The position numbers were made by a program, and so were the translations under genes. DNA of 64,000 nucleotides, taken from NCBI GenBank assembly GCA_041651995.1, contig JBAZID010000011.1:22345-86344 (forward strand). Direction: 5' to 3'. Under the pieces are notes generated by a model that did not search any database, was not told where the DNA came from, and was given only the letters and a program-made list of their open reading frames with translations. Source of the DNA: Sulfuricella sp. GTDB taxonomy: Bacteria; Pseudomonadota; Gammaproteobacteria; Burkholderiales; Sulfuricellaceae. Position 1 is the first letter of the stretch. Every line of letters starts with the position of its first letter. Shown in pieces: positions 3,369 through 62,285 of the stretch.

Positions 3369-3372
3369 CGAG

Positions 3373-3434
3373 ATAGGCGTGGGGTGTGAGGAGGCTGGGG
3401 TTTACTCCTCACTCCTCACCCCTCACTCCTCACC
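3373..3434. repeat. Heptamer (C[C/T]CCTCA)n inverted-array element, short copy
   Basis: gtgtgaggag...ggggtttac-(ctcctca/cccctca)x4 between glyA and nrdR. Confidence 0.75.
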
Positions 3435-3440
3435 CGCTCA

Positions 3441-5068: not shown

Positions 5069-5665
5069 ATGTTTACCGGCATCATTCAGGCGGTGGGGAA
5101 AATCACCGCCATCGAACCCTTGCAGCAGGGCGTGCGCCTCTCCATCGACGCGGGCGGCCTGGATATGAGCGACGTGGCGCTGGGCGACAGCATCGCAGCC
5201 AACGGTGTATGCCTGACGGTGATCGAGAAAACCGCCAATGGCTACCAGGTCGATGTCTCGCGCGAAACGCTGAACTGCACCGCAGGGCTGGGCGAGCCCG
5301 GCGAAGTCAACCTGGAAAAGGCGCTGCGCCTGTCCGACCGGCTGGGCGGGCACCTGGTGAGCGGCCACGTGGATGGCGTGGGCGAAGTGGTGAAGTTCGC
5401 GCCAGTGGGCGAGTCGCACGAACTGGTGATCCGCGCCCCCAAAGCCCTGGCACGCTATATCGCCCACAAGGGCTCGATCACGGTCAACGGGGTGAGCCTG
5501 ACGGTCAACTGGGTGAAAGACGAGGACTTCAGCATCAACCTGATTCCCCACACCATTCAAGCCACCAATTTCAAACATCTGCGCGCCGGCAAACCGGTCA
5601 ACCTGGAAGTCGACCTGGTGGCGCGCTATCTGGAACGCATGCTGAGTTACGGCAAGGACGAATAA
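5069..5665 (+). CDS. ribE: Riboflavin synthase (alpha chain; ribC in E. coli naming)
   Basis: MFTGII start, GDSIAANGVCLTV, GGHLVSGHVDG. Confidence 0.97.
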   Translation: MFTGIIQAVGKITAIEPLQQGVRLSIDAGGLDMSDVALGDSIAANGVCLTVIEKTANGYQVDVSRETLNCTAGLGEPGEVNLEKALRLSDRLGGHLVSGHVDGVGEVVKFAPVGESHELVIRAPKALARYIAHKGSITVNGVSLTVNWVKDEDFSINLIPHTIQATNFKHLRAGKPVNLEVDLVARYLERMLSYGKDE

Positions 5666-5823
5666 ACCTGGAAAAATCAGTTAACCACGGGGCACACAGG
5701 GTACACAGGGTAAAATCGAGGACTATGAAGTATTGGGTAAATATTCGTTATGAGAACGGATTCCCAGGCTCAAACGCTCTTGCCTTCCCCGTGATCCCCG
5801 TGGTTAAGATTTAGTTTTAAGGA
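5666..5823. mobile_element. MITE-like element family A (TIR about ACCTAGAAA; inner TTAACCACGGGG arms), TAA target duplication
   Basis: TAA(5663-65)|ACCTGGAAA...TTAACCACGGGG...CCCCGTGGTTAA...TTTTAAGGA|TAA(5824-26). Confidence 0.75.
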
Positions 5824-5830
5824 TAAATAT

Positions 5831-6931
5831 ATGAATATAAGCCCGATACAAGACATAATCGCCGACTTCAAAATCGGCAAGATGGTCGTCCTGGTGGACG
5901 AGGAAGACCGCGAGAACGAGGGCGACCTGGTGCTGGCGGCCGAATTCGTCACCCCGGAAGCCATCAATTTCATGGCCAGGCATGGCCGTGGCCTGATCTG
6001 CCTGACCCTGACCGAGGCGCGCTGCCGCCAGCTCGACCTGCCGCTCATGGTGTCGAGCAACAAGGCGCCGCTGGGCACCAATTTCACCGTTTCAATCGAG
6101 GCGGCGGAAGGCGTAACCACGGGCATCTCCGCCGCCGACCGCGCCAAGACCGTGCTGGCGGCGGTGAAGAAGGATGCAAGCGTGAATGACATCGTGCAGC
6201 CCGGACACATTTTTCCGCTCAAGGCGCAGAATGGCGGCGTGCTGGTGCGTGCCGGGCATACCGAGGCGGGCTGTGATCTGGCTGCGCTGGCCGGGCTGGA
6301 ACCAGCCGCGGTGATTTGCGAGATTCTCAAGGAAGACGGCGAAATGGCTCGTCTGCCCGACCTGCTGGAATATGCCAAAAAACATGATCTCAAGATCGGT
6401 ACCATCGCCGACCTGATTCACTACCGCAGCCAGACCGAAAGCCTGGTGGAGCGCGTGGCGGAGAAAGCCGTGCAGACAGCCTACGGTGAATTCCAGTTGG
6501 TCACCTATCACGACAAGACCGCCAACGAAGTGCATCTGGCGCTGGTGAAAGGCGAGATCAAGGCTGGAGAGGAAACCCTGGTGCGCGTGCATGAGCCGCT
6601 GTCGGTGATGGATTTTATCGACACCACCAGTTTCGAGCATTCCTTCAGCGTGCACCAGGCAATGCAGGCCGTGGCCGATGCGGGCAAGGGCGTGATCGTG
6701 CTGATGCGGCGCGGCGGTGAGTCCCCTGCCAGCCTGCTGGCGCGCATCCAGCGCAGCGAACCCAAAGCCCCTGCCAAGGTGGATTTGCGCAATTATGGTA
6801 TCGGCGCACAGATCCTGCGCGACCTCAATGTCACCAAAATGCGTCTGCTCTCGCTGCCGCGCAAGATGCCGAGCATGACGGGCTTCGACCTGGAAGTGAC
6901 TGGCTATTACGAACCGAAACAGGAAAACTGA
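5831..6931 (+). CDS. ribBA: DHBP synthase fused to a degenerate GTP cyclohydrolase II domain (RibBX type)
   Basis: [18 protein letters not shown]; C-domain [10 protein letters not shown] lacks the zinc cysteines. Confidence 0.93.
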
Positions 6932-6933
6932 TA

Positions 6934-7401
6934 ATGGGAATTTCCAACAAACTGCCTGAATTCCATCCCGACCTGAACGGTGCCGGCCTGAAAATCGGCA
7001 TCGCCATGAGCCGCTTCAATATCGACGTGTGCGAGGGGTTGCTGGGCGCCTGCGTGACCGAGTTGCTCAAGCTGGGCGTGGCCAAGGAAGATATTTACCT
7101 GGCGAGCGTGCCCGGTGCGCTGGAAATTCCGCTGGCGCTGCAAAAGATGGCGAAAAGCGGCAAATTCGACGCGTTGGTGGCCCTTGGCGCGATCATTCGC
7201 GGCGAGACCTACCACTTTGAATTGGTGGCCAACGAATCCGGCAGCGGCGTGACCCGCATTATGCTGGACAGCGGCATGCCCATCGCCAACGTTATCCTGA
7301 CTGTGGAAAACGAGGAACAGGCCTTGGCCCGCATGGCGGAAAAAGGCGCCGATTCGGCGCGGGTGGTGGTTGAGATGGTTAATCTGCTGAAGAAAATTTA
7401 A
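6934..7401 (+). CDS. ribH: 6,7-dimethyl-8-ribityllumazine synthase
   Basis: [22 protein letters not shown]. Confidence 0.97.
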
Positions 7402-7412
7402 ATAGGCTCTAC

Positions 7413-7847
7413 ATGAAAAAAAACCGCCGCAAAGCGCGCGAACTCGCTGTTCAGGGGCTTTACCAGCGCCAGCTTACTGGCGACGCAGTGGAAACAATCG
7501 AAGCTCAGCTGCGCGAGCACGAAGAATTCGAAAAGATCGATGGGGAACATTTTTCCGCCATACTCCATGGCGCAATCAAGGATGTGACCAATCTGGAAAG
7601 CAAGCTCCAGCCCTGCCTCGACCGGCCCATGGAAAGCCTGAGCCCGGTTGAGCGCGCCGTCCTGCTGGTGGCGACCTACGAGTTCGTGCATCACCTGGAA
7701 ATCCCCTACCGCGTGGTGATCAACGAAGCCATCGAACTGGCCAAGTGTTTTGGCGGAACGGATGGTTACAAGTACGTCAACGGCGTGCTCGACAAGCTGG
7801 CTGCCAGCGAGCGGGCCAGCGAGGTCAACGCGGCAAAGGTAAAGTAA
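7413..7847 (+). CDS. nusB: Transcription antitermination factor NusB
   Basis: [31 protein letters not shown]. Confidence 0.97.
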
Positions 7848-7912
7848 GCAACCCCCGAATTAATACCGGACCTGCAATTCCGGTTTAATCTTCCGCCTTG
7901 CTCTGGCTATAA

Positions 7913-8090
7913 TCCCGGATTGTTTATTGGAATGCATGTGCGGTAGGAGCGCCGCCCCCGGCGCGAATGTAAGCAAAAATCGCGGCGAGGGCGCCGCTCC
8001 CACGGCGGTGTTTTGGCGCCAGGAATCCCAGTGGGGAGATGACGGGACTGTGAAATAAATCAGCGTCTCCCTAATGGAGATAATCCGGGA
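7913..8090. mobile_element. MITE-like element family B (TIR WCCCGGATTRTCCATT) enclosing a GTAG-type REP doublet; TAA target duplication
   Basis: TAA|TCCCGGATTGT...ATAATCCGGGA|TAA; REPs at 7943-7966 and 7980-8003. Confidence 0.8.
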
Positions 8091-8101
8091 TAATCAGACT
8101 C

Positions 8102-9814
8102 ATGGCGAAAAAACTCCGTTACGGTGATTATCTCGGCGCAGTGCGGCACCGGCAGCGCAAGCTCAGCTACAACGAAGTTGTCGCGCATACCCGGCGCTCT
8201 CCGCGTAAAACCAAATTGCGTCCGCGCGATTTTTATCGTCTCCTTGCCCCCTATATTGGCGTGCGTTTTGCCGAACAGTTGATGGCAGTCGTGCCGCTGG
8301 CAGCGTTTCTGGTGTTCTTCGAGGTTGCTGTGCTGGATTCGGCGGTGAGCGGCTGGGAAGGCATTGCCCTGGGCATGGCGGCGGTGATCCTTGGCCTGAT
8401 GCTGTTCATGGAAGGGGTCAAGCGCGGCCTCATGCCATTCAGCGAGAATATCGGCTATACCATGCCGGGCAAGTTTTCCACCCCGATGGTCCTGGGTGTA
8501 GCCTTCGTGCTGGGTTTCATGGCCACGCTTGCCGAGCCGGCCATCGGTGCGCTCAGGGCGGCCGGCAGTCTGGTGAGCCGCGATGAAACGCCATATTTGC
8601 ATCTTTTGCTCAATGAGCGCTCGGATTTGCTGGTGTTATCGGTGGGCTTCGGGGTCGGCCTGGCCGTTCTGGCCGGGGTGCTGCGTTTCATTTTCGGCTG
8701 GAGCCTCAAATCCCTGATTATCGCCACCCTGGTGCCATGTCTCGGCATGACCCTGTTTTTCTCCCTGGATGGCCGGCTGGAGCCGATCATCGGGCTGGCC
8801 TGGGATTGCGGTGCGATCACCACGGGACCGGTGACGGTGCCGCTGGTACTGGCCATCGGGATTGGCGTGTCTGCCGCCACCAGCAAGGAAGACAACCCGC
8901 TTTCCGGTTTCGGTATTGTCACCCTGGCCTCGCTGTTCCCGCCCATCGCGGTGATGTCGCTTGGCCTGGCGCTTTCATTGGGCGATTTTCCGGTGCTGGA
9001 TAGCGCTTTGAAAATTACCGCCAAGACGGCATGGTATGAGCGTTCCCCTTTTGATGACATCATCGCTGCGCTGCGCGCCATTCTGCCGCTGACCCTGTTC
9101 CTCTGGCTGGTGCAGCACTGGTGGCTGAAGAGCCCGGTGAAGGAAGGAAAAATCCTGCTGTACGGCATCGCCCTGGCGGTATTGGGCATGATGCTTTTCA
9201 ATATTGGCCTGGATTACGGCCTGACGCCCCTGGGCGGACAGGCGGGCGGGATGGTGCCGGCCGCTTTTGCCACTTTCCCGGACATTCAGGGTTCGCCGCT
9301 GTATCCATACTGGATGGGCATCGGACTTGCCCTGCTGTTTGCCCTGCTGCTCGGCTTTGGCGCCACGCTGGCGGAACCTGCGCTGAATGCCATGGGCGTC
9401 ACGGTACAGAACCTGACCGATGGCGCTTTTACCAAAACACTGCTGATGCATGCGGTGGCGGTGGGGGTGGGCCTGGGTGTGGCCCTGGGCGTGGCAAAGG
9501 TGATTTTTGCAATCCCGATTGTGCTGCTCATTCTCCCGTCCTATCTGCTGGCCCTCGCCCTGACGGTGATTTCCAGTGAGGAATTTGTCAATCTGGCCTG
9601 GGATAGCGCCGGGGTGACCACCGGCCCGGTGACCGTGCCACTGGTTCTGGCCCTGGGACTGGGATTGGGCAAGGCGGTTGGCGCACAGGATGGGTTCGGC
9701 ATCCTGGCGATGGCTTCGGTCGGGCCGATTCTAAGCGTGCTCCTGACCGGGCTGTGGATTCGCTGGCGGGTGAAGAGGCGTCGTATGGCTATGGAAAGGA
9801 CAAACCACGGGTGA
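8102..9814 (+). CDS. Fused double-DUF1538 polytopic membrane protein
   Basis: Two internal repeats, each with ATLAEPA and (D)xGxxTTGPVTVP; many hydrophobic helices. Confidence 0.85.
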   Translation: MAKKLRYGDYLGAVRHRQRKLSYNEVVAHTRRSPRKTKLRPRDFYRLLAPYIGVRFAEQLMAVVPLAAFLVFFEVAVLDSAVSGWEGIALGMAAVILGLMLFMEGVKRGLMPFSENIGYTMPGKFSTPMVLGVAFVLGFMATLAEPAIGALRAAGSLVSRDETPYLHLLLNERSDLLVLSVGFGVGLAVLAGVLRFIFGWSLKSLIIATLVPCLGMTLFFSLDGRLEPIIGLAWDCGAITTGPVTVPLVLAIGIGVSAATSKEDNPLSGFGIVTLASLFPPIAVMSLGLALSLGDFPVLDSALKITAKTAWYERSPFDDIIAALRAILPLTLFLWLVQHWWLKSPVKEGKILLYGIALAVLGMMLFNIGLDYGLTPLGGQAGGMVPAAFATFPDIQGSPLYPYWMGIGLALLFALLLGFGATLAEPALNAMGVTVQNLTDGAFTKTLLMHAVAVGVGLGVALGVAKVIFAIPIVLLILPSYLLALALTVISSEEFVNLAWDSAGVTTGPVTVPLVLALGLGLGKAVGAQDGFGILAMASVGPILSVLLTGLWIRWRVKRRRMAMERTNHG

Positions 9815-10108
9815 ACCCAGATCGGCCATTAAACCTATAAAAAGCAATTAACCACGGAGTTCACGGAGCACACGGAGTAAAAACCATAGATTGCATGATA
9901 TTTGGCATTCACCCGTTGGGTGAGGCCATAAATGACCGCAAACTGCCTTTCTCCGTGCCCTCCGTGCCCTCCGTGGTTATCGAACTGAGGTTTCTAGGTT
10001 AAATGCATGGGCATGCAGGAGCGCCGCCCCCGGCGCGAATTTGGCCGCAAATCGCGGCGAGGGCGCCGCTCCCACAGCGGTGTTTTGTCACAAATGGATA
10101 ATCACGGA
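9815..10108. mobile_element. Family B element (TGA target duplication) interrupted by a family A element
   Basis: TGA(9812-14)|ACCCAGATCGGCCAT...REP doublet 10015-10075...AATGGATAATCACGGA|TGA(10109-11). Confidence 0.75.
9833..9999. mobile_element. Family A MITE-like element nested in the family B element
   Basis: TAA(9830-32)|ACCTATAAA...(CACGGAGnn)x3...(CTCCGTGnn)x3...TTTCTAGGT|TAA(10000-02). Confidence 0.8.
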
Positions 10109-10473
10109 TGAATGAAGACATCATTGTATTGACCGATGTCGTGCTGATTACCGTCATCGTCCAGCGTGGCGTGGCGGATACGGTGGTGCAGGCCGCCCAG
10201 AAGGCCGGGGCGCAGGGCGCGACGATTTTCTATGCGCGCGGCACCGGGGTGCGCCAGCGCCACCTGGGCGTGCTTGGCGTGGCGGTCAATGCGGAAAAGG
10301 AAGTGGTGTATATCGTGGCTTCCACTGACCAGGCCGACCGGATTTTCGAACGGATATTCGTTGCCGCCAAGCTCGATACGCCCGGCATGGGAATGATTTA
10401 CATGACCCATCTGGAAAAAATGGCAACGCATGTGCCGCATGATCTGGTTGCCCGGATTGCCAGCCATGAGTGA
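10108..10473 (+). CDS. PII-like signalling protein 1
   Basis: ITVIVQRG...GATIFYARGTG...EKEVVYIV...PGMGMIY, PII fold pattern. Confidence 0.85.
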   Translation: MNEDIIVLTDVVLITVIVQRGVADTVVQAAQKAGAQGATIFYARGTGVRQRHLGVLGVAVNAEKEVVYIVASTDQADRIFERIFVAAKLDTPGMGMIYMTHLEKMATHVPHDLVARIASHE

Positions 10474-10816
10474 TGCCGGTTTGCTGCAATCTTACAAGGT
10501 GATCACCTGTTTCCTGCCTGCGGGCAAGGGCAAGGAGGTGCTCGATGATCTGCGCAAGCAAAAAGGGGTGTACAGCGGCTTTGTGCATCACGCACGAGGC
10601 GCGGGTGTCGACAGCAGGCGCGGCAATAATGCGCCGTTCTATGTGGAACGAGAGGTGATCACCGTGCTGGCGCCAGTGGCGCAGGCGGATGAGGTATTTG
10701 AATTTCTTTATTTCAATGCGGGCCTCGATCAGCCGCACGCCGGCATGGTGCTGATGGAAAAGGCGATTCGCGGGATGATGTGCAATCTTACCCCGGAAAT
10801 GGTGGATGAAGGCTGA
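10466..10816 (+). CDS. PII-like signalling protein 2 (divergent)
   Basis: KVITCFLPAGKG...HHARGAG...EREVITVL...AGMVLM; ATG at 10466 overlaps the PII-1 end. Confidence 0.75.
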   Translation: MSDAGLLQSYKVITCFLPAGKGKEVLDDLRKQKGVYSGFVHHARGAGVDSRRGNNAPFYVEREVITVLAPVAQADEVFEFLYFNAGLDQPHAGMVLMEKAIRGMMCNLTPEMVDEG

Positions 10817-10877
10817 GCCGCACCCGGCATCGGGGCAACCCGGCGGTTCTTTTGGCTGCGACAAGCGCAACAATGCG

Positions 10878-12320
10878 CTACAGCAGGAATAGGGTGGCGA
10901 GGCCGAGGAAAATGAAGAAGCCCCCGCTATCGGTGACGGCGGTAATCAGCACGCTTGACCCCACAGCGGGGTCGCGCCCGAATTTGTGCATCGCCAGGGG
11001 GATGAAAACGCCCATGCTGGCCGCCAGCAGCAGGTTGAGAATCATGGCGCCAGTCATGACCGCGCCCAGTGCCGCATTCTGGTACAGGGCGTAGGCCAGC
11101 AGGCCAAGGATGGAGCCCCAGATCAGGCCGTTGACCAGGCTGACGCCAATTTCCTTGATAAACAGTTTACGCATGCTGCTGGGGTGGATTTGCCCCAGCG
11201 CCAGGCCGCGCACGATCATGGTAATAGTCTGGTTGCCGGAGTTTCCGCCAATGCCCGCGACAATGGGCATCAGCGCCGCGAGGGCGACAATTTTCTCGAT
11301 CGAGCCTTCGAACACGCCGATCACCCGCGAGGCGATAAAGGCGGTCACCAGATTGATGGCCAGCCAGGTCCAGCGGTTTTGCATGGATTTCCATACCGAG
11401 GCGAACATGTCTTCCTCTTCGCGCAAGCCGGCCATGGCAAGTACATCGCTCTCCGCCTCTTCGCGGATGAAGTCCATCACTTCGTCAACGGTCAGGCGCC
11501 CCACCAGCTTGTTGTAGGAATTCACCACCGGCGCCGTCACCAAATCATAGCGCTCGAAGGCGGACGCGGCATCGCTTGCCTTGTCGTTGCCGTTGAAAAC
11601 CACCGGGACGTCCGACATGGCTGCCGAGACCAGCGCTTCCGGGTTGTGCAGCAAAAGGCGTTTCAGGGGCAGTATGCCGCGCAGCTTTTCCTTGTTGTCC
11701 ACGACGAACAGTTTGTCGGTATGGCTGGGCAGTTCGCCAAGTTTGCGCAAATCCGCCAGCACCTGCTCCAGGCTGATGTCTTCGCGTATGGTGACCATGT
11801 CGAAATCCATCAGCGAACCCACGGTGCCTTCCGAATAGGACAGGGCTGATTGCAGTTGAGCCTGTTCTTCCTTGTCCAGCGATTTGAACAGCTCTTCGAT
11901 CACTTCGCGCGGCAGGTCGGCGGCAAGGTCGGCGATCTCGTCGGTATCCAGCTGTTCCGCCGCAGCCCGCAATTCGGCGGTGTCCATGGTGGCGATGAGC
12001 GATTCGCGAACCGCGTCCGATACTTCCAGCAGGATGTCGCCGTCGCGGTCCGCCCGCACGAGTTCCCAAACCACCAGCCGCTGATCGAGCGGCAGCGCTT
12101 CGAGAATGTAGGCGACGTCGGCTGGGTGCAGTGCGTCCAGCGTATTCTGCAATTCCGCCAGATTCTGCTTGTGCACCAGTTGCTGCACCAGATCGTGGCG
12201 CGGCATATCCTGCTTGTTCACCAGCGACTCCACCAGCTCATGTTTGTGCAAAAGCTCGACCACGCGCTTCAGGCTTTCCTGAACGCTTTCGCGCGGGGCG
12301 TTTTGGTGGCTATCTGACAT
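10878..12320 (-). CDS. mgtE: Magnesium transporter MgtE
   Basis: HPADVA N-domain, CBS pair, MPIVAGIGGNSGNQT, DPAVGSSVLITAVTD. Confidence 0.96.
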   Translation of the reverse strand: MSDSHQNAPRESVQESLKRVVELLHKHELVESLVNKQDMPRHDLVQQLVHKQNLAELQNTLDALHPADVAYILEALPLDQRLVVWELVRADRDGDILLEVSDAVRESLIATMDTAELRAAAEQLDTDEIADLAADLPREVIEELFKSLDKEEQAQLQSALSYSEGTVGSLMDFDMVTIREDISLEQVLADLRKLGELPSHTDKLFVVDNKEKLRGILPLKRLLLHNPEALVSAAMSDVPVVFNGNDKASDAASAFERYDLVTAPVVNSYNKLVGRLTVDEVMDFIREEAESDVLAMAGLREEEDMFASVWKSMQNRWTWLAINLVTAFIASRVIGVFEGSIEKIVALAALMPIVAGIGGNSGNQTITMIVRGLALGQIHPSSMRKLFIKEIGVSLVNGLIWGSILGLLAYALYQNAALGAVMTGAMILNLLLAASMGVFIPLAMHKFGRDPAVGSSVLITAVTDSGGFFIFLGLATLFLL

Positions 12321-12385
12321 GGCGGGTTCGGCTGCTTATGGCAATGAAGGGGTTATTATAGTGGTGGCACTGGCTAAGGTTCTAT

Positions 12386-13078
12386 CTATCTGCGCATATT
12401 CCGGGCGCCGAATATCGCCGTTCCTATCCTGACGATGGTGGCGCCTTCGGCAATCGCGGCTTCCAGATCATTTGACATGCCCATGGACAGGGTGTCGAGC
12501 TGGAAGTTCTTGCGATTCAGCTGGTCGAGCAATTCGCGCACTGCCCGGAATTGCTGGCGTTGCAAAGCGGCATTTTCCGTCGCTGCGGGAATGGCCATCA
12601 GCCCGCGCAGTTGCAGGCGCGGCAAGGTGCGTACATGGGCTGCCAGGGCTTCCAGCTCCTGTGGGGCAACCCCGCCTTTGCTGGCCTCGCCGCTTACGTT
12701 GACTTCCAGACACACTTGCAGCGGGGGGAGTTGCGCGGGTCTGGCGAAGGACAGGCGGTCGGCGGTTTTTTCCCGGTCCACGCTGTGCACCCAGCTGAAA
12801 TGTTCGGCAACCAGGCGTGTCTTGTTGCTCTGCAAGGGGCCGATGAAATGCCATTCCAGCGGCAAATCGGAGAGCGCCGCGATTTTGCCCACGGCTTCCT
12901 GCACGTAACTCTCGCCGAACGCGTTTTGCCCGGCCCGGAAAGCCTCCCGTACTGCTTCCGCGGGAAAGGTTTTGCTGACCGCAAGCAGACGGATGTCCTG
13001 TGGTACTCTTCCTGCCCGCAAGGCCGTGCTTTCAATGCGCTGTTTAACGGCTTGCAAGGCGCTTATGATTGTTGTCAT
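12386..13078 (-). CDS. yggS: PLP homeostasis protein YggS
   Basis: LLAVSKTFP, FGESYVQE, WHFIGPLQSNK, LSMGMS, VRIGTAIFG. Confidence 0.96.
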   Translation of the reverse strand: MTTIISALQAVKQRIESTALRAGRVPQDIRLLAVSKTFPAEAVREAFRAGQNAFGESYVQEAVGKIAALSDLPLEWHFIGPLQSNKTRLVAEHFSWVHSVDREKTADRLSFARPAQLPPLQVCLEVNVSGEASKGGVAPQELEALAAHVRTLPRLQLRGLMAIPAATENAALQRQQFRAVRELLDQLNRKNFQLDTLSMGMSNDLEAAIAEGATIVRIGTAIFGARNMRR

Positions 13079-13134
13079 AATGACCTTATTCTATTCGGTC
13101 ATGCGGTCATGTGGCCGCACTTGGGGGATTATAA

Positions 13135-14178
13135 ATGGAAATCTCGGATCTACTCGCCTTCTCGGTCAAGAACAAGGCCTCCGACCTGCACCTCTCCGCG
13201 GGACTGCCCCCGATGATCCGCGTCAACGGCGATGTCCGGCGCATCAACGTCGATTCGCTGGATCACAAGGGCGTGCATGGCATGGTGTACGACATCATGA
13301 ACGACGGCCAGCGCAAGTTCTACGAGGAAAACCTCGAGGTCGATTTTTCCTTCGAGATTCCCGGCCTGGCCCGCTTCCGCGTCAATGCCTACAACCAGAA
13401 CCGGGGTGCGGCAGCGGTCTTCCGTACCATTCCCTCCAAGGTGCTGACGCTCGAACAGCTCAATTGTCCGCCCATCTTCAAGGACATCGCTGACCAGCCG
13501 CGCGGTATCGTGCTCGTGACCGGGCCAACCGGTTCCGGCAAGTCCACCACCCTGGCGGCGATGATCAACCACATCAACGAAAACGAGTACGGCCACATCC
13601 TGACGGTGGAAGACCCGATCGAATTCGTGCATGAAAGCAAGCGTTGCCTGATCAACCAGCGCGAAGTCGGGCCGCATACCCTGTCATTTTCCAATGCACT
13701 GCGCTCGGCGCTGCGTGAAGACCCGGACATCATCCTGGTGGGTGAGATGCGCGACCTGGAAACGATCCGACTGGCCCTGACCGCGGCCGAAACCGGCCAC
13801 CTGGTGTTTGGTACCCTGCATACCAGCTCTGCGGCCAAGACCATCGACCGGATCATCGACGTGTTCCCTGCCGCGGAAAAGGAAATGGTGCGTTCCATGC
13901 TGTCCGAATCGCTGCGCGCGGTCATTGCCCAGACCCTGCTGAAAACCAAGGATGGCAGTGGAAGGGTTGCCGCGCATGAAATCATGGTCGGCACGCCGGC
14001 GATCCGCAACCTGATCCGTGAAAACAAGATCGCCCAGATGTATTCCGCCATCCAGACCGGCCAGAACCTCGGCATGCAGACGCTCGACCAGTGCCTGACC
14101 GATCTGGTGCGACGCAATGTCGTGGCGCCGAACGAAGCCCGCACCAAGGCCATGAACAAAGACAGTTTCGGCGGCTGA
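13135..14178 (+). CDS. pilT: Type IV pilus retraction ATPase PilT
   Basis: ASDLHLSAG, GPTGSGKST, AIRNLIRE. Confidence 0.97.
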   Translation: MEISDLLAFSVKNKASDLHLSAGLPPMIRVNGDVRRINVDSLDHKGVHGMVYDIMNDGQRKFYEENLEVDFSFEIPGLARFRVNAYNQNRGAAAVFRTIPSKVLTLEQLNCPPIFKDIADQPRGIVLVTGPTGSGKSTTLAAMINHINENEYGHILTVEDPIEFVHESKRCLINQREVGPHTLSFSNALRSALREDPDIILVGEMRDLETIRLALTAAETGHLVFGTLHTSSAAKTIDRIIDVFPAAEKEMVRSMLSESLRAVIAQTLLKTKDGSGRVAAHEIMVGTPAIRNLIRENKIAQMYSAIQTGQNLGMQTLDQCLTDLVRRNVVAPNEARTKAMNKDSFGG

Positions 14179-14205
14179 TAACCAGAATCACAAAGCGATC
14201 CCGCG

Positions 14206-14298
14206 CCCCTCTTCTCGCCGGATTGAGCGGCTTTGCCGCCAATCCCGGCGGGGACACTCCTTCCGGGTGCTCCCCCGGGAGAGAGCAGGGAGAGAGGG
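14206..14298. repeat. Branched palindromic intergenic element
   Basis: Inner hairpins 14218-14248 and 14251-14274 inside CCCTCTTCTC/GAGAGAGGG outer arms. Confidence 0.55.
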
Positions 14299-14318
14299 TT
14301 CGATAAAGAGGACAAAAT

Positions 14319-15455
14319 ATGGAACGCGAACAGGCACAGAAATTCATGCACGATCTGCTGCGGCTGATGCTCAGCAAGAAGGCATCCGACCTGTTTATCA
14401 CTGCCGGTTTTCCGCCTGCCATCAAGGTCGATGGCAAGGTGACGCCGGTATCCAACCAGACCCTGACGCCTGCGCATACGCAGGAACTGGCGATGGCGAT
14501 CATGAACAGCAAACAGGCTTCCGAGTTCGAGTCCACCAAGGAATGCAACTTCGCCATCAGCCCGCCGGATATCGGCCGTTTCCGGGTTAACGCTTTTGTG
14601 CAGCAGTCGCGCGTGGGGCTTGTCCTGCGCACCATCACGGCCAAGATTCCGAAATTCGAGGAGCTTGGCCTGCCCGAAGTGCTCAAGGATGTTGCCATGA
14701 CCAAGCGCGGTCTGGTGATTTTCGTCGGCGGCACGGGCTCCGGTAAATCCACCTCGCTGGCGGCGATGGTGGGTTACCGTAACGAAAATAGCTTTGGTCA
14801 CATCATCACCATCGAGGACCCGGTGGAATATGTGCACGACCACAAGAACTGCATCGTGACCCAGCGCGAGGTCGGCGTGGATACCGATAACTGGTTTGCT
14901 GCGCTGAAAAATACCCTGCGCCAGGCGCCGGATGTGATCCTGATCGGCGAGATCCGCGACCGCGAAACCATGGATTACGCCATTGCTTTCGCCGAGACCG
15001 GCCACCTGTGCCTCTCCACTCTGCATGCCAACAGCACCAACCAGGCACTGGACCGGATTATCAACTTTTTCCCGGAAGAGCGGCGTGACCAGTTGCTGAT
15101 GGATTTGTCCCTCAACCTCAAGGCCTTTGTTTCGCAACGCCTGATCCCGATGAAAGAGGGCAAGGGCCGTGCCGCCGCGATCGAGATCATGCTCAATTCA
15201 CCGCTGATCTCGGACCTGATTTTCAAGGGGGATGTGCACGAGATCAAGGATGTCATGAGCCGCTCGCGCGAACTGGGCATGCAGACTTTCGACCAGTCGC
15301 TGTTCACTTTGTATGAGGAAGGCCTGATCAGCTACGAGGACGCCTTGCGCAACGCGGATTCGGTCAACGACCTGCGCCTCAAGATCAAGCTGCATGGGCA
15401 GGAGTCCAAGGACAAGGATCTCATGTCTGGTATCGATCATCTTGGCATCGTGTAA
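14319..15455 (+). CDS. pilU: Type IV pilus ATPase PilU
   Basis: ASDLFITAG, GGTGSGKST, GMQTFDQ; tandem with pilT. Confidence 0.96.
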   Translation: MEREQAQKFMHDLLRLMLSKKASDLFITAGFPPAIKVDGKVTPVSNQTLTPAHTQELAMAIMNSKQASEFESTKECNFAISPPDIGRFRVNAFVQQSRVGLVLRTITAKIPKFEELGLPEVLKDVAMTKRGLVIFVGGTGSGKSTSLAAMVGYRNENSFGHIITIEDPVEYVHDHKNCIVTQREVGVDTDNWFAALKNTLRQAPDVILIGEIRDRETMDYAIAFAETGHLCLSTLHANSTNQALDRIINFFPEERRDQLLMDLSLNLKAFVSQRLIPMKEGKGRAAAIEIMLNSPLISDLIFKGDVHEIKDVMSRSRELGMQTFDQSLFTLYEEGLISYEDALRNADSVNDLRLKIKLHGQESKDKDLMSGIDHLGIV

Positions 15456-15459
15456 ATCA

Positions 15460-15570
15460 GGTGAGGGGTTAGAGGTGAGGGGTGAGGCGGAAAGTCAAAC
15501 CCCCAAGCATGCACCGAACCTGGGTTTGCCCCTCACCCCTCACCCCTCACCCCTCACCCCTCACCCCTAT
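15460..15570. repeat. Heptamer (CCCCTCA)n inverted-array element
   Basis: GTGAGGGG arm - AAACCCCCAAGCATGCACCG core - (CCCCTCA)x5; includes the stop codon of the minus-strand gene. Confidence 0.85.
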
Positions 15571-16726
15571 CGTTCACCGGTTTCTCCCGCCGCATTCCTC
15601 CCGCGACCATCTTGTATTCGAACAGGCGGCATTCCAGCGGGCCGTTGAAAAGCGGTATGCGACGTGACGCGGAAAGCCGGATCAGCTTCGCCAGGCGGAA
15701 ATCAGCGGTGAAAAAATAGGCGCGCCAGCCGGTGAATCGCTGCTTCAATGCATGGCCCAGTTCCGGGTACATGGCGGCCAGTTCTTCCTGTTCGCCGATT
15801 CTCACGCCGTAGGGCGGGTTGGTCACCAGCACGCCTTCTGGTGCGGGTGCAGGCATTTCCAGCAGATTGCCTTGCTTGAGTTGTACTGCATCCAGCAGAC
15901 CGGCGGTTTCAAGGTTCTCGCGCGCCACTTTCAGCACGTCGCCATATAAATCGCTGCCGTAAATATGGCAGAACTGTACCGGCTTGCGTCGTGCCTCGGC
16001 ATCCTGGCGCAGTTTTGCCCAGGCCTGGGCATCGAAGCGATGCAGTTTGCTGAAGGCGAATTCGCGTCCCAGGCCAGGGGCGATGTCGAGTGCCATTTGC
16101 GCCGCTTCCATGAGGAAAGTGCCGCTGCCGCACATTGGATCGAGTAAGGTTTCACCCGGCTTCCAGCCTGAGAGGTGCAGAATGCCTGCCGCAAGATTTT
16201 CGCGCAGCGGGGCTTCCACGGATGAACGGCGCAGGCCGCGCTTGAATAGCGCCGGGCCGGAGGTGTCGAGGTAAAGTGCAAAATTTTCCTCTTCGAGAAA
16301 GGCGTGGATGCGCAGATCCGGCTCATGAGTGTCTATGCTTGGCCGTTCGCCGGTCTGGTCGCGGAACTTGTCGCAAACCGCATCCTTGATTTTCAGGGTG
16401 ATGAAGTCCAGGCTTTGCAGGGGGCAGCGCTTGGCGCTGACCTTGACCATGATGGTGCATGTTCTGTCGAACCAGTCCTGCCAGGGCAGCGCGTAGGCAG
16501 CCTTGTAAATGTCTTCCTCTCGGCGGTAGCGGCCACTGTCCAGGCGCCACAGGATGCGGCTGGCGATGCGGCTTTCCAGGTTGGCGCGGTAGCACAATTC
16601 GAATGGCCCGCTGAATCCGGCACCGCCGTCAGTGGCTTGCACCCCGGATGCGCCAAGCGCTTCCAGTTCGGCTGCCAGCGCGCTTTCAAGTCCACGTGGA
16701 CAAGGGGCAAAAAAATGTTCAGACAT
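15554..16726 (-). CDS. THUMP-domain SAM-dependent rRNA methyltransferase (RlmL-like)
   Basis: CPRGLE, ANLESRIASRIL, APLRENLAAG, DPMCGSGT, NPPYG. Confidence 0.9.
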   Translation of the reverse strand: MSEHFFAPCPRGLESALAAELEALGASGVQATDGGAGFSGPFELCYRANLESRIASRILWRLDSGRYRREEDIYKAAYALPWQDWFDRTCTIMVKVSAKRCPLQSLDFITLKIKDAVCDKFRDQTGERPSIDTHEPDLRIHAFLEEENFALYLDTSGPALFKRGLRRSSVEAPLRENLAAGILHLSGWKPGETLLDPMCGSGTFLMEAAQMALDIAPGLGREFAFSKLHRFDAQAWAKLRQDAEARRKPVQFCHIYGSDLYGDVLKVARENLETAGLLDAVQLKQGNLLEMPAPAPEGVLVTNPPYGVRIGEQEELAAMYPELGHALKQRFTGWRAYFFTADFRLAKLIRLSASRRIPLFNGPLECRLFEYKMVAGGMRREKPVNDRGEG

Positions 16727-16798
16727 GATGCGAAAATCTGGTGATGAAGGAAACAGGAATATACACTATCCAGCTGCCTGTGATTTCAAGGACGATGC

Positions 16799-16864
16799 AA
16801 CCACGGGACACACGGGGAGCACGGGGAAAACTTATTGCTTCTTACCCCCGTGTACCCCGTGGTA
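16799..16864. repeat. Family A inner-arm inverted repeat without outer TIRs
   Basis: AACCACGGGACACACGGGGAGCACGGGG...CCCCGTGTACCCCGTGGT. Confidence 0.75.
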
Positions 16865-16873
16865 AAAAGCTTT

Positions 16874-18520
16874 ATGAATTTAGCTCAACTACTCGCCCAA
16901 CATCTTTCCACGCCGGACCGGATTCTCTACAGCCAGTTCGAGGAAGGCGCATGGCGCGATTACTCTGCGGCTGAGGTGGTCCGGTTAGCCGCGCGCTGGC
17001 AGCAGGCGCTGCGCCGGGAAGGTTTGCTGGCCGGTGACCGGGTGGCGCTGTGCCTGAAAAACGGCGTGAACTGGGTGGCGCTGGATATGGCTGCCCTGGG
17101 GCTGGGGCTGGTGGTGGTGCCGCTGTATCTGGATGATAACGCTGAAAACATGGCCTGGTGCCTGCGCGATTCGGGCGCGCGTTTTCTGGTGCTGGAGAAC
17201 GCGCGCCAGTTTCAGGCGCTGCAGGCATGTGCATCCGAATTGCCGCCTGTCGTATGCGTGCTGGATGGGGCGGCAGGTGGCATTGCGCTGGCAAACTGGC
17301 TGCCGCCCGCGGCTACGCCGGATTTCGAGGTTCAGGCGGTTGCACCAGAGGTGCTGGCCACCATTGTTTACACGTCTGGCACTTCCGGCCGTCCGAAAGG
17401 GGTCATGCTCTCGCATGGCAATATTCTGGCAAATGTTTCGGCCTCAAGCGAGGTGGTGCACCTGCATGGTGAAGACAGCCTGCTTTCCTTGTTGCCCCTG
17501 TCGCATATGTTCGAGCGCACTTGCGGCTATTACCTGCCGCTGGCGGCGGGCATCAGAGTGGCCTATGCGCGTGGCATCCAGCAGATCGGCGAGGACCTTG
17601 CTCATCACCGGCCCACGGTGATGATTGCAGTTCCCCGGGTGTTCGAGCGCTTTCTGGCGCGGCTGGAAAAATCGCTATCCGAATCCTTTGTAAAGCGGGT
17701 CCTGTTCCGCCTTACCGTTCATCTCGGCTGGCGCCGTTTCAAGGGCCGGGCCGGCCGGCTGGAAAAAATGCTGTATGCCCTGTTGCACCATATGGTGGCC
17801 AGGCCGGTTCTGATACGCCTGGGCGGGCGCCTGGCCCTTGCCGTGGTGGGCGGGGCAAAGGTGGAGTTGCGCATTGCACGCACGTTCATTGGGCTTGGGC
17901 TCAACATGATTCAAGGTTACGGCCTTACCGAGGCGGCGCCAGTGGTGGCGGCAAATCGTGAATGGGACAATGATCCGGTAACCGTTGGCGCGCCGCTGTC
18001 ACAGGTCGAAACCTGCATCAACGCAGCGGGTGAACTGCTGGTACGCGGACCCTCTGTCATGCTGGGCTACTGGAACAATCCGGAAGAGACAGCAAAAATT
18101 CTTGCTGCCGATGGCTGGCTCAATACCGGCGATCTGGCCGAAATGCAGGATGGCAAGATCATCATCAGGGGGCGCAGCAAGGATATTCTGGTGCTTTCCA
18201 ACGGCGAGAAAGCATCGCCCCAGGATGTGGAAATTGCCATTCTTGATGATCCGCTGTTTGAGCAGGTGATGCTGGTTGGCGAAGGGAAACCTTTCTTTTC
18301 CTTGCTGGCCGTTACCCAGGAGGAGGATGAGAAAATTCTCGTCCGGCGCGCCAACGCCCGATTGAAAGCCTTTCCCCGCTACGTGAGAGTGCGCCGTGTG
18401 ATTGCTGTCAAGGAGCCATGGACGATAGAGAACGGGCTTCTCACGCCGACCCAGAAAGTCCGGCGCAGCGCGGTAGAGGCGCGCTACGGGGAGCTAATCA
18501 AGCAGCTCTATCAGACCTGA
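16874..18520 (+). CDS. Long-chain fatty acid-CoA ligase (AMP-dependent synthetase)
   Basis: YTSGTSGRPKG, QGYGLTEA, TGDL, GRSKD; ATG 16874 preferred over the ORF-track start. Confidence 0.9.
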   Translation: MNLAQLLAQHLSTPDRILYSQFEEGAWRDYSAAEVVRLAARWQQALRREGLLAGDRVALCLKNGVNWVALDMAALGLGLVVVPLYLDDNAENMAWCLRDSGARFLVLENARQFQALQACASELPPVVCVLDGAAGGIALANWLPPAATPDFEVQAVAPEVLATIVYTSGTSGRPKGVMLSHGNILANVSASSEVVHLHGEDSLLSLLPLSHMFERTCGYYLPLAAGIRVAYARGIQQIGEDLAHHRPTVMIAVPRVFERFLARLEKSLSESFVKRVLFRLTVHLGWRRFKGRAGRLEKMLYALLHHMVARPVLIRLGGRLALAVVGGAKVELRIARTFIGLGLNMIQGYGLTEAAPVVAANREWDNDPVTVGAPLSQVETCINAAGELLVRGPSVMLGYWNNPEETAKILAADGWLNTGDLAEMQDGKIIIRGRSKDILVLSNGEKASPQDVEIAILDDPLFEQVMLVGEGKPFFSLLAVTQEEDEKILVRRANARLKAFPRYVRVRRVIAVKEPWTIENGLLTPTQKVRRSAVEARYGELIKQLYQT

Positions 18521-18550
18521 CAAGCACGGGTGGCGGAATCCGTTCGTTAA

Positions 18551-18675
18551 ACCCGGATTGTCCATTGGAATGCTTGTGCATGTAGGAGCGGCGCCCTCGC
18601 CGCGAATGCAATCGCAAATCGCGGCGAGGGCGCCGCTCCTACAGCAATGTTTTGACTTAAATGGATTGTCTCGGT
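18551..18675. mobile_element. Family B element with a perfect 24-bp REP inverted doublet; TAA target duplication
   Basis: TAA(18548-50)|ACCCGGATTGTCCATT...GTAGGAGCGGCGCCCTCGCCGCGA/TCGCGGCGAGGGCGCCGCTCCTAC...|TAA(18676-78). Confidence 0.8.
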
Positions 18676-19085
18676 TAAAACGGCTTGACCACCACCAGAA
18701 TCACCGATGCGCTCAGTATCAGCACGGGTAATTCGTTGAACCAGCGGTAGAAGACATGGCTGCGGCGATTGCGCTGCCGGGCAAAATCCTCCACCAGCTT
18801 GCCGCAGTAGAGGTGGTAAATGATCAGAACCACCACCAGCGCCAGCTTGGCATACAGCCAGCCGCCACTGAATCCATAACCCAGCCACAGCCAGGTGCCG
18901 AGTGTCAGCGCCAGAATGGCCAGCGGGGTCATGAAGCGGTACAGCTTGCGCTCCATCAGGGTCAGGCGCTCTGCTGTTGCGGCATCCACGTCCATGGCGT
19001 GATTCACGAACAGCCTGGGAAGATAGAACAGTCCGGCAAACCAGGAAACAATAAAAATGATGTGGAAGGCTTTAATCCAGAGCAT
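18675..19085 (-). CDS. hemJ: Protoporphyrinogen oxidase HemJ
   Basis: KAFHIIFIVSWFAGLFYLPRLFVNH, MERKLY, FNELP. Confidence 0.93.
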   Translation of the reverse strand: MLWIKAFHIIFIVSWFAGLFYLPRLFVNHAMDVDAATAERLTLMERKLYRFMTPLAILALTLGTWLWLGYGFSGGWLYAKLALVVVLIIYHLYCGKLVEDFARQRNRRSHVFYRWFNELPVLILSASVILVVVKPF

Positions 19086-33601: not shown

Positions 33602-33682
33602 GGTGAGGGGTGAGGGGTGAGGGGTGAGGGGTAAAACCACCATGCACCGCTTAGGCCCATCACTCATCACTCTTCACTCCTT
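33602..33682. repeat. Heptamer (GGGGTGA)n inverted-array element
   Basis: (GGGGTGA)x3-GGGG - AAAACCACCATGCACCG core - degenerate TCACTCA arm. Confidence 0.8.
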
Positions 33683-33686
33683 ACGA

Positions 33687-58085: not shown

Positions 58086-62281
<4,196 letters not shown>

Positions 62282-62285
<4 letters not shown>

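Follow-up and report, generated by a model that had tools for sequence, protein, structure and literature searches.

Two families of gene-less mini-elements with 5-bp WTNAW target duplications in Sulfuricella, very probably mobilised by IS1380-type transposases

Introduction

Among the transposable elements of the miniature inverted-repeat kind (MITEs) known from bacteria, Correia and RUP duplicate TA at their target sites. Chunjie carries terminal inverted repeats (TIRs) of 21 bp and 9-bp repeats (PMC3184786). Insertion sequences (ISs) of the IS1380 family encode transposases that form the prokaryotic outgroup of piggyBac (PMC10813416), and members of the family accept imperfect ends (PMC9330008, PMC3316993), with relaxed end recognition described for ISEcp1 and ISPme1 (PMC9330008), whilst GTAG-type repetitive extragenic palindromes (REPs) have been described together with REP-associated tyrosine transposases (RAYTs) (PMC3733652). 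Here we describe five small elements of two families, A and B, in a 64,000-nucleotide stretch of DNA from Sulfuricella sp. (assembly GCA_041651995.1, contig JBAZID010000011.1, positions 22,345 to 86,344), the whole of which is referred to as the window. In ENA the window is a metagenome contig (ERZ27247358, k141_135229), and its source is a betaproteobacterium. The elements lie amongst ribE, ribBA, ribH, nusB and genes for a DUF1538 and a PII-like protein, in that order, with genes for an AMP-ligase and hemJ/UPF0093 farther along.

A sequence-only reading of the window had described these elements as MITE-like, with 3-bp T(A/G)A duplications, and had ascribed them to IS5-family transposases of the IS1031/ISL2 type. 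The analysis presented here makes it highly probable that they are gene-less MITEs with CC...GG ends and 5-bp WTNAW duplications (W being A or T), mobilised in trans by a transposase of the IS1380 type. The literature searched yielded no account of MITEs derived from IS1380.

The target-site duplication is five base pairs long

Complete copies were gathered from other genomes, those of family B by a genome scan with the REP core and those of family A by nhmmer together with a metagenome scan with the family-A end, and duplications were scored with the element ends anchored on CC...GG. A perfect 5-bp repeat flanked 36 of the 49 A-type copies and 7 of the 13 of family B, well in excess of chance; amongst these 62 copies there was a single 4-bp repeat and no repeat of 3 or 6 bp, which contradicts the 3-bp duplication proposed earlier. 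Agreement between the two pentamers at positions x1 to x5 was seen in 46, 46, 40, 48 and 44 of the 49 A-type copies, respectively. The same pattern fits all five window elements (Table 1), amongst which only B2 has pentamers that differ (GTGAA/ATGAA), as well as 11 further Sulfuricellaceae copies. The target duplication is 5 bp with the consensus (A/T)-T-N-A-(A/T), and the element termini are CC...GG. Unbiased logos, drawn from family B (found by its core) and from the ISs of Geobacter, Polaromonas and locus L166 described below, had T as the second and A as the fourth base, a free middle base and mostly A/T at the outer positions.

The identical triplet reported on either side of each element does recur, as T-N-A, at every clean copy, though only as the core of the pentamer; similarly, the five elements with inverted ends lie where they had been placed, but with each end off by one base. 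For the window elements, the supposed last base of the element is identical to the one that precedes the left triplet, and its supposed first base to the one that follows the right triplet. The W with which the TIRs had been thought to start thus belongs to the duplication, which explains why it is non-complementary between the two ends.

The bodies of the five elements span 123-292 bp, below the limit of about 600 bp for MITEs, and lack a transposase gene, in keeping with the earlier view of them as gene-less, non-autonomous and dependent on mobilisation in trans. TIRs are present, with degenerate right or left ends in B2 and B3. Each of the elements folds end to end into a single-strand hairpin under DNA parameters (z -2.4 to -11 versus shuffles), and no Rfam family was found over them at gathering or relaxed thresholds. 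The arms of A1 are 9-nt repeats at 5681-5701 and 5787-5807, whilst A2 has a central palindrome, TCACCCGTTGGGTGA, at 9909-9923. In B1 the REP doublet (7940-7966 / 7980-8006) is followed by about 50 additional bases at the right, and in B3 GTAGGAGCGGCGCCCTCGCCGCGA at 18582-18605 faces its complement at 18619-18642. Nesting was observed in both directions, with A2 lying within B2 (window 9816-10107) and a family-B copy lying within a family-A-like element with CACGGAT arms in a Sulfuricella metagenome-assembled genome (MAG; L106 3700-4010).

Table 1. Elements of families A and B and their target-site copies (window coordinates).
Feature	Position	Strand	Remarks
A1 left target copy ATAAA	5662..5666		includes ribE stop TAA (5663-5665)
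A1, family A, 156 bp body	5667..5822	+	ends CCTGGAAAAATCAGTT... / ...AAGG
A1 right target copy ATAAA	5823..5827		3 nt upstream of ribBA ATG (5831)
B1 left target copy ATAAT	7909..7913		most of TATAAT hexamer (7908-7913)
B1, family B, 176 bp	7914..8089	+	TIR CCCGGATTGT.../...ATAATCCGGG
B1 right target copy ATAAT	8090..8094		7 nt upstream of DUF1538 ATG (8102)
B2 left target copy GTGAA	9811..9815		one change relative to ATGAA of relatives; includes DUF1538 stop TGA (9812-9814)
B2, family B, 292 bp counting nested A2	9816..10107	+	REP doublet 10018-10041 / 10049-10072
A2 left target copy TTAAA	9829..9833		within B2
A2, family A, 165 bp, nested in B2	9834..9998	+	arms 9849-9880 / 9948-9979
A2 right target copy TTAAA	9999..10003		within B2
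B2 right target copy ATGAA	10108..10112		provides PII-like gene ATG (10108-10110)
B3 left target copy TTAAA	18547..18551		
B3, family B, 123 bp	18552..18674	+	perfect REP doublet
B3 right target copy TTAAA	18675..18679		hemJ stop inside (TTA 18675-18677, minus strand)

Empty sites, copy number and clustering

The closest relatives of the window are Sulfurimicrobium and Sulfuricella MAGs, and the syntenic region was obtained from five relatives, with DUF1538 proteins 85-94% identical to that of the window. Empty sites with a single pentamer were present in four of them (loci L123, L124, L126 and L129). In the relatives, the nusB|DUF1538 junction reads 'ctggcTATAATcagact(c/t)ATG', the DUF1538|PII junction reads 'ccacggATGAATGAAG' with overlapping stop and start codons, ribE and ribBA overlap as TAATG or ATGA, and the AMP-ligase|hemJ junction reads 'TGAcagTTAAaacggc' (also given as 'cagTTAAaacggc'). 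The compact junctions that had been predicted from removal of the elements are hence real ones, and the relatives hold one target copy rather than both triplets. B3 is also skipped by related-strain contigs in metagenome runs X3 and X5 (CGTGACA-GTTAAAAC), which show the same empty site. A2 is absent from the relatives together with its host element B2, and no A or B copy was found across about 20 kb of synteny in the five relatives. Because the relatives have precise empty sites with one target copy, the five elements are true insertions. They are recent and non-coding.

In the source metagenome (run X1) the depth of the family-B left arm was about 9.5 times that of the flanks, and other run X1 contigs at the same depth of about 240x part ways at 18546-18552, the boundary of B3. 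Arms of the A1 type are present in about three copies in the source organism, two further ones having been found at equal depth in run X1. Leftward extension of the B end within the source metagenome led to no longer element, just to other MITE copies and REP variants. All five insertions fall within 13 kb (5666-18679), and the other 51 kb of the window are without any. This clustering, despite some ten B and few A1-type copies per genome, suggests local hopping or a regional burst, the copy numbers behind it being depth ratios in a metagenome.

Family A and its IS1380-like partner

Family-A copies have in common an end of about 17-20 bp (CCTRKAAAAAKCAGTT), whilst their interiors differ. The arms consist of direct units of 8-10 nt, two or three in number (CACGGAG, CACGGGG, CACAGAG, CACGGAT, CGCAGAT, CACGAAA and others) with complements in the opposite arm, and many A-type copies have a central TCACCnnnnGGTGA palindrome. 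Minimal elements of 48-78 bp, consisting of nearly just two family-A ends, were observed at L146 7782-7829, L180 6824-6877, L203 720-783 and L190 2138-2215; their 5-bp duplications were perfect in L146 and L180 and had one mismatch in L203 and L190. As these contain little beyond the two ends, family-A ends alone may perhaps be enough for mobilisation.

A long open reading frame (ORF) was found between two family-A ends in four of 120 metagenome stretches bearing that end (L166, L230, L164 and L202). Partner ISs of this kind, the Geobacter one below included, are 1614-1689 bp long and have a single ORF encoding a DDE transposase of 500-518 aa. The element in L166 (274-1907) is 1634 bp long, has ATCAA on both sides and carries a 518-aa ORF, to the product of which the L230 protein is 52% identical. 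The Pfam domains DDE_Tnp_1_4 and DDE_Tnp_1 were both detected above the Pfam threshold, the same two domains being present in ISEcp1, ISPosp7 and IS1380A, and the best NCBIfam model was IS1380 (E 2.6e-46, 158 bits). Identity to NCBI-annotated IS1380 transposases on plasmids was 25-26% over 75-79% of the length. In Geobacter sulfurreducens, a 1614-bp IS with ends CCTATAAACCGCAGTTG / CCTAAAAACGGCAGTTG encodes a 'transposase' and occupies five sites with duplications ATAAA, TTCAA, ATAAT, ATAAC and ATGAA, whilst a Polaromonas plasmid copy of the partner IS is flanked by TTAAA. The protein collection yielded more than 8000 relatives of the transposase, for the most part from contigs of some 1.6-2 kb, as is expected of a multi-copy IS.

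The full-length elements found with family-A ends thus all encode an IS1380-like transposase, which leaves the IS1031/ISL2 attribution unsupported, and by sequence the partner of family A is probably a distant clade of IS1380. The autonomous IS with the same ends, for which the sequence-only reading had recommended a search, therefore exists for family A in other genomes and metagenomes; for family B none was found.

In the full-length ISs the palindrome TCACCnnnnGGTGA encloses the start codon of the transposase gene (GGAGGACTCACCAAATGGGTGA in L166, with similar sequences in L259 and in the annotated IS1380 element L261). Since the central palindrome of the MITEs equals this start-codon palindrome, family A looks like an internal-deletion derivative of the full-length IS. 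The palindrome, TCACC(A/C)AA(T/C)GGGTGA, lies at about 1856-1880 in L166, 395-415 in L259 and 555-572 in L261 (compare window 9909-9923), and would seem to be a conserved element of translational control in the IS family. A hairpin formed upstream of it in L166 by CCTCCTGAT...ATCAGGAGG could sequester the ribosome-binding site.

One 1.3-kb segment of an uncultured Sulfuricella MAG (L060 2369-3711) has a family-A-type end (TAA|TCCTAAAAACCTCGGTTG) on one side and a family-A element on the other. It was rejected as an autonomous IS, as it holds a gene for a ParA-like ATPase and a small ORF and no transposase, and it may represent a captured cargo segment. A generic scan of the genome loci for TNA+WCCYRGA pairs returned just MITEs and chance pairs, one of the latter within the long ORF at 58086-62285 of the window.

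Family B and its REP core

The ends of family B (CCCRGATTRTCCATT) match the left end of ISEcp1 (CCTAGATTCTACGT, confirmed beside its transposase gene) at 10 of 15 bases and the family-A end at 10 of 17. Full-length copies form a unit of about 111-124 bp in which these ends are conserved and the interior is a GTAG-type REP doublet, with terminator-like sites of REP stem plus T-run on both strands. The full unit was seen mainly in Sulfuricella, Sulfurimicrobium and Sulfuricellaceae MAGs, whereas at least 120 stretches hold the REP 22-mer, most of them lacking the outer ends; they come from many genera of beta- and gammaproteobacteria, with Thiobacillus, Methyloversatilis, Rhodoferax, Limnohabitans, Chromatiales and Sedimenticola amongst the sources. 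A TIR-like pair in Thiobacillus (L019) was considered as an autonomous IS and rejected, as it encloses a cytochrome-like ORF and no transposase.

Proposed mechanism and alternative explanations

The mechanism envisaged is ordinary cut-and-paste mobilisation of MITEs in trans. An IS1380-like transposase, whether encoded at another place in the genome or present at some earlier time, would bind the inverted ends and move the elements. In family B, an IS1380-like TIR pair with its 5-bp duplication would have been placed around a REP doublet, and its movement would depend either on a further IS1380-family relative or on relaxed end recognition; as IS1380 members accept imperfect ends, cross-mobilisation and an unseen relative are both possible.

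Several observations weigh against mobilisation of both families by IS1380-type enzymes. The partner transposase scores 158 bits, under the NCBIfam IS1380 cut-off of 180, for which reason NCBI records name it only 'transposase'. By tblastn, such a transposase was absent from the window, as the sequence-only reading had noted of a transposase with these ends, and from about 1 Mb of REP-core loci, many of them Sulfuricellaceae. No full-length IS with family-B ends was found in the genome or metagenome loci searched, so mobilisation of family B by an IS1380-type enzyme rests on the similarity of its ends and the shared 5-bp duplication. The T-N-A-W of the metagenomic family-A logo was imposed by the search pattern and is no evidence for the target, and the pentamers differ by one or two mismatches in L066, L069b, L030A and L230 and by more in L106. 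Lastly, IS1380A duplicates 4 bp (TCGA) and starts with CGCGG, such that CC ends and 5-bp duplications are not universal in the family.

The explanation of the sequence-only reading, MITEs with W-starting inverted ends and 3-bp TWA/TNA duplications mobilised by IS5-family enzymes of the IS1031/ISL2 type, draws on the T-N-A triplet repeated at every clean copy, and IS5-family subgroups, like the eukaryotic PIF/Harbinger elements, do make 3-bp TNA/TWA duplications. A 3-bp duplication does not predict that the outer bases repeat as well (x1 in 46 and x5 in 44 of 49 copies), and the 'W' end bases are non-complementary and match the opposite flank instead, as in L092 even C and G do. Moreover, the autonomous elements found with these ends all have an IS1380-like enzyme and none an IS5-like one, leaving this explanation very improbable. 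Rather less remote, albeit still improbable, is that family B is a REPIN (a REP doublet forming a hairpin) spread by a RAYT, an IS200/IS605-like tyrosine/HUH transposase, with its outer inverted and flanking repeats being incidental. The core is indeed a textbook GTAG-type REP doublet, its left and right REPs differ by stem-preserving changes (GCGCCG/CGGCGC versus GCGGCG/CGCCGC), and the wide distribution of the 22-mer without outer ends would fit. Nevertheless, insertion of the IS200/IS605 type leaves no duplication and works without terminal inverted repeats, whereas B moves as the complete unit with its CCCRGATTRTCCATT ends and a 5-bp duplication, and the empty sites of the relatives lack the whole unit and keep one pentamer. 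A RAYT gene was not seen, although no search aimed at one was made.

That the hairpins are resident regulatory structures (terminators, attenuators or mRNA stabilisers) which arose in place is the least credible of the alternatives and already contradicted. It would accommodate the strong folding of all elements, the terminator-like sites of family B on both strands and the position-conserved heptamer-arm hairpins found elsewhere in the window, yet all five elements are missing from close relatives (94% protein identity), in which the junctions are clean. Moreover, these units recur at unrelated loci of other genomes between different pentamers, and the sequences around further copies within the organism part ways exactly where the element ends. 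We thus favour gene-less MITEs mobilised in trans by an IS1380-type enzyme.

A further and tentative extension of this reading, of low probability, is that IS1380-type ends have repeatedly enclosed host hairpin repeats, giving rise to chimeric mini-elements that would form an undescribed superfamily of IS1380-derived MITEs, very widespread amongst environmental bacteria. The enclosed module of family B would conceivably be the GTAG REP doublet, and that of many A-type elements the arms of two or three phased 8-10-nt repeats, which resemble the TIR-less heptamer-arm hairpins elsewhere in this genome. If true, two unrelated machineries, a DDE transposase and either a RAYT or template-switch repair, would propagate and reshape these mini-elements.

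Insertion at operon junctions and stop codons

The duplicated triplets had been said to coincide with the ribE stop, the DUF1538 stop, the TTAA of the hemJ stop (18675-18678), a TATAAT box (7908-7913) and a site within B2, and all of these coincidences were confirmed. With a 5-bp duplication, the ribE, DUF1538 and hemJ stops and the PII-like start all fall within duplicated pentamers of the host. The ends of the elements had been suggested to serve as translation signals; the start codon of the PII-like gene and the stop of hemJ are wholly contained in the host pentamer and lie outside element sequence. At B2, the ATGAA pentamer had held the overlapping stop and start, of which each gene retained one copy. 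Four relatives conserve the TATAAT hexamer, at which a simple scan called no sigma-70 promoter.

Preferential survival at stop codons, as had been proposed, is weakly supported, with an excess against one background and none against another. When genes were called by a GC3-aware finder, 5 of the 15 copies in Sulfuricellaceae coincided exactly with a stop, or 6 together with B3, which overlaps a stop. Relative to all tolerated T-N-A sites, 8-12% of which are stops, the count is some three times that expected (binomial P about 0.01-0.06), whereas 4.4 would be expected if a random T-N-A in the same spacer were hit (P 0.46). In the wider metagenomic family-A set, 3 of 40 copies were on stops versus 3.15 expected, on crude calls from a length-only gene finder that miscalls genes in G+C-rich loci (the ribE stop, for example, was classed as genic). 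The stop-codon pattern is as expected of a WTNAW target in a G+C-rich, tightly packed genome, with no distinct mechanism, and selection is perhaps a contributor. WTNAW pentamers would be scarce in this genome of about 58% G+C outside stop codons and A/T-rich signals, and tolerated insertions would for that reason often fall on stop codons, on stop/start overlaps of the ATGA type or on TATAAT, with the duplication giving each neighbour one intact target copy.

Other repeats in the window and its relatives

A third class of hairpins, without IS-type ends, was observed at 3370-3437, 15460-15573 and 33602-33686 of the window, where the arms are tandem heptamers (GGTGAGG xN ... CCTCACC xN). Hairpins of this class are also present in the relatives at L123 5545-5640, L124 5525-5635, L126 5598-5688 and 17158-17238, and L129 5680-5768, and similar ones in the Chromatiales MAG loci L007, L021, L024 and L025. 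At the same glyA|nrdR and pilU|rlmL junctions the hairpins of the relatives are made from other heptamers (GTGAARN / NYTTCAC; CAGCGNN / NNCGCTG). Position is conserved, sequence co-varies between the arms, and a short CTGG(G)TTTG tract ahead of the 3' arm is shared. The rlmL ORF of the window (15554-16726, minus strand) encodes 390 aa, versus 384-388 in the relatives, and enters the heptamer hairpin at its arm of CCCTCAC repeats, from which the final codons of the ORF and its stop (15554-15573) are apparently derived.

The AMP-ligase|hemJ spacer, which holds B3 in the window, has a different MITE-like insertion in the Sulfuricella MAG locus L129 (20590-20760), with a perfect 19-nt inverted repeat (CTAGCAGCCTGTCGGACTT) that takes in a CTAG on each side, possibly a 4-bp target of the IS5-group kind; the same spacer would thus have been struck twice independently. 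Within the ribBA coding region, window 5928-6028 (minus strand) gave a sub-threshold match to the Rfam family V_AS9, a Vibrio antisense RNA (37.6 bits; gathering threshold 50), which most likely reflects coding-sequence similarity.

Comparison with known systems

These results correct the annotation of the repeats, which are IS1380-like rather than IS5-like and duplicate 5 bp rather than 3, and leave the known working of such elements unchanged. A simple rule, CC...GG ends and a repeated WTNAW, retrieves a very large set of small elements from metagenomes. Duplication of the pentamer can split an ATGA overlap or a stop codon with both neighbours left intact, which calls for caution in interpreting operon junctions in MAGs.

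The IS5-family ISs of the IS1031/ISL2 type share with these elements the T-N-A at the centre of the target, but differ in the length of the duplication, and an IS5-type transposase was not found with these ends. Bacterial MITEs such as Correia/NEMIS, RUP, Nezha and Chunjie resemble the window elements in being small, with inverted ends, a target duplication and hairpin folding, and in lying intergenically beside genes and within operons without breaking reading frames; they have other ends and another duplication, and Chunjie, with its 9-bp repeats, is ruled out as a relative. With REPs and REPINs, family B shares a core of two inverted GTAG-tagged REPs with a short spacer, but here DDE-type inverted ends surround the doublet, and the whole lies between the two copies of a 5-bp duplication. 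Family B is a clear case of a REP doublet carried in a DDE-type MITE and is of relevance to the spread of REPs.

The piggyBac elements, which target TTAA, recall the commonest pentamers found here (TTAAA, ATAAA and TTTAA) with their A/T-rich T..A core, although the present elements are bacterial, duplicate 5 bp rather than 4 and leave the middle base free, as TCA and TGA occur. The nearest likeness is to the IS1380 family (ISEcp1, IS1380A, ISPosp7 and IS1247). The partner IS is of similar size (1.61-1.69 kb versus 1.62-1.67 kb), has short inverted ends starting with CC(T/C)(A/G)G, as do ISEcp1 (CCTAGATTCTACGT) and ISPosp7 (CCTGAATATTTCAC), and shares a 4-5 bp duplication and the TCACCAAATGGGTGA palindrome at the start codon (L261). 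It differs in that its transposase is 60-100 residues longer and about 25% identical, and in that its target is a defined WTNAW pentamer, whilst the window elements are gene-less and are not themselves ISs.

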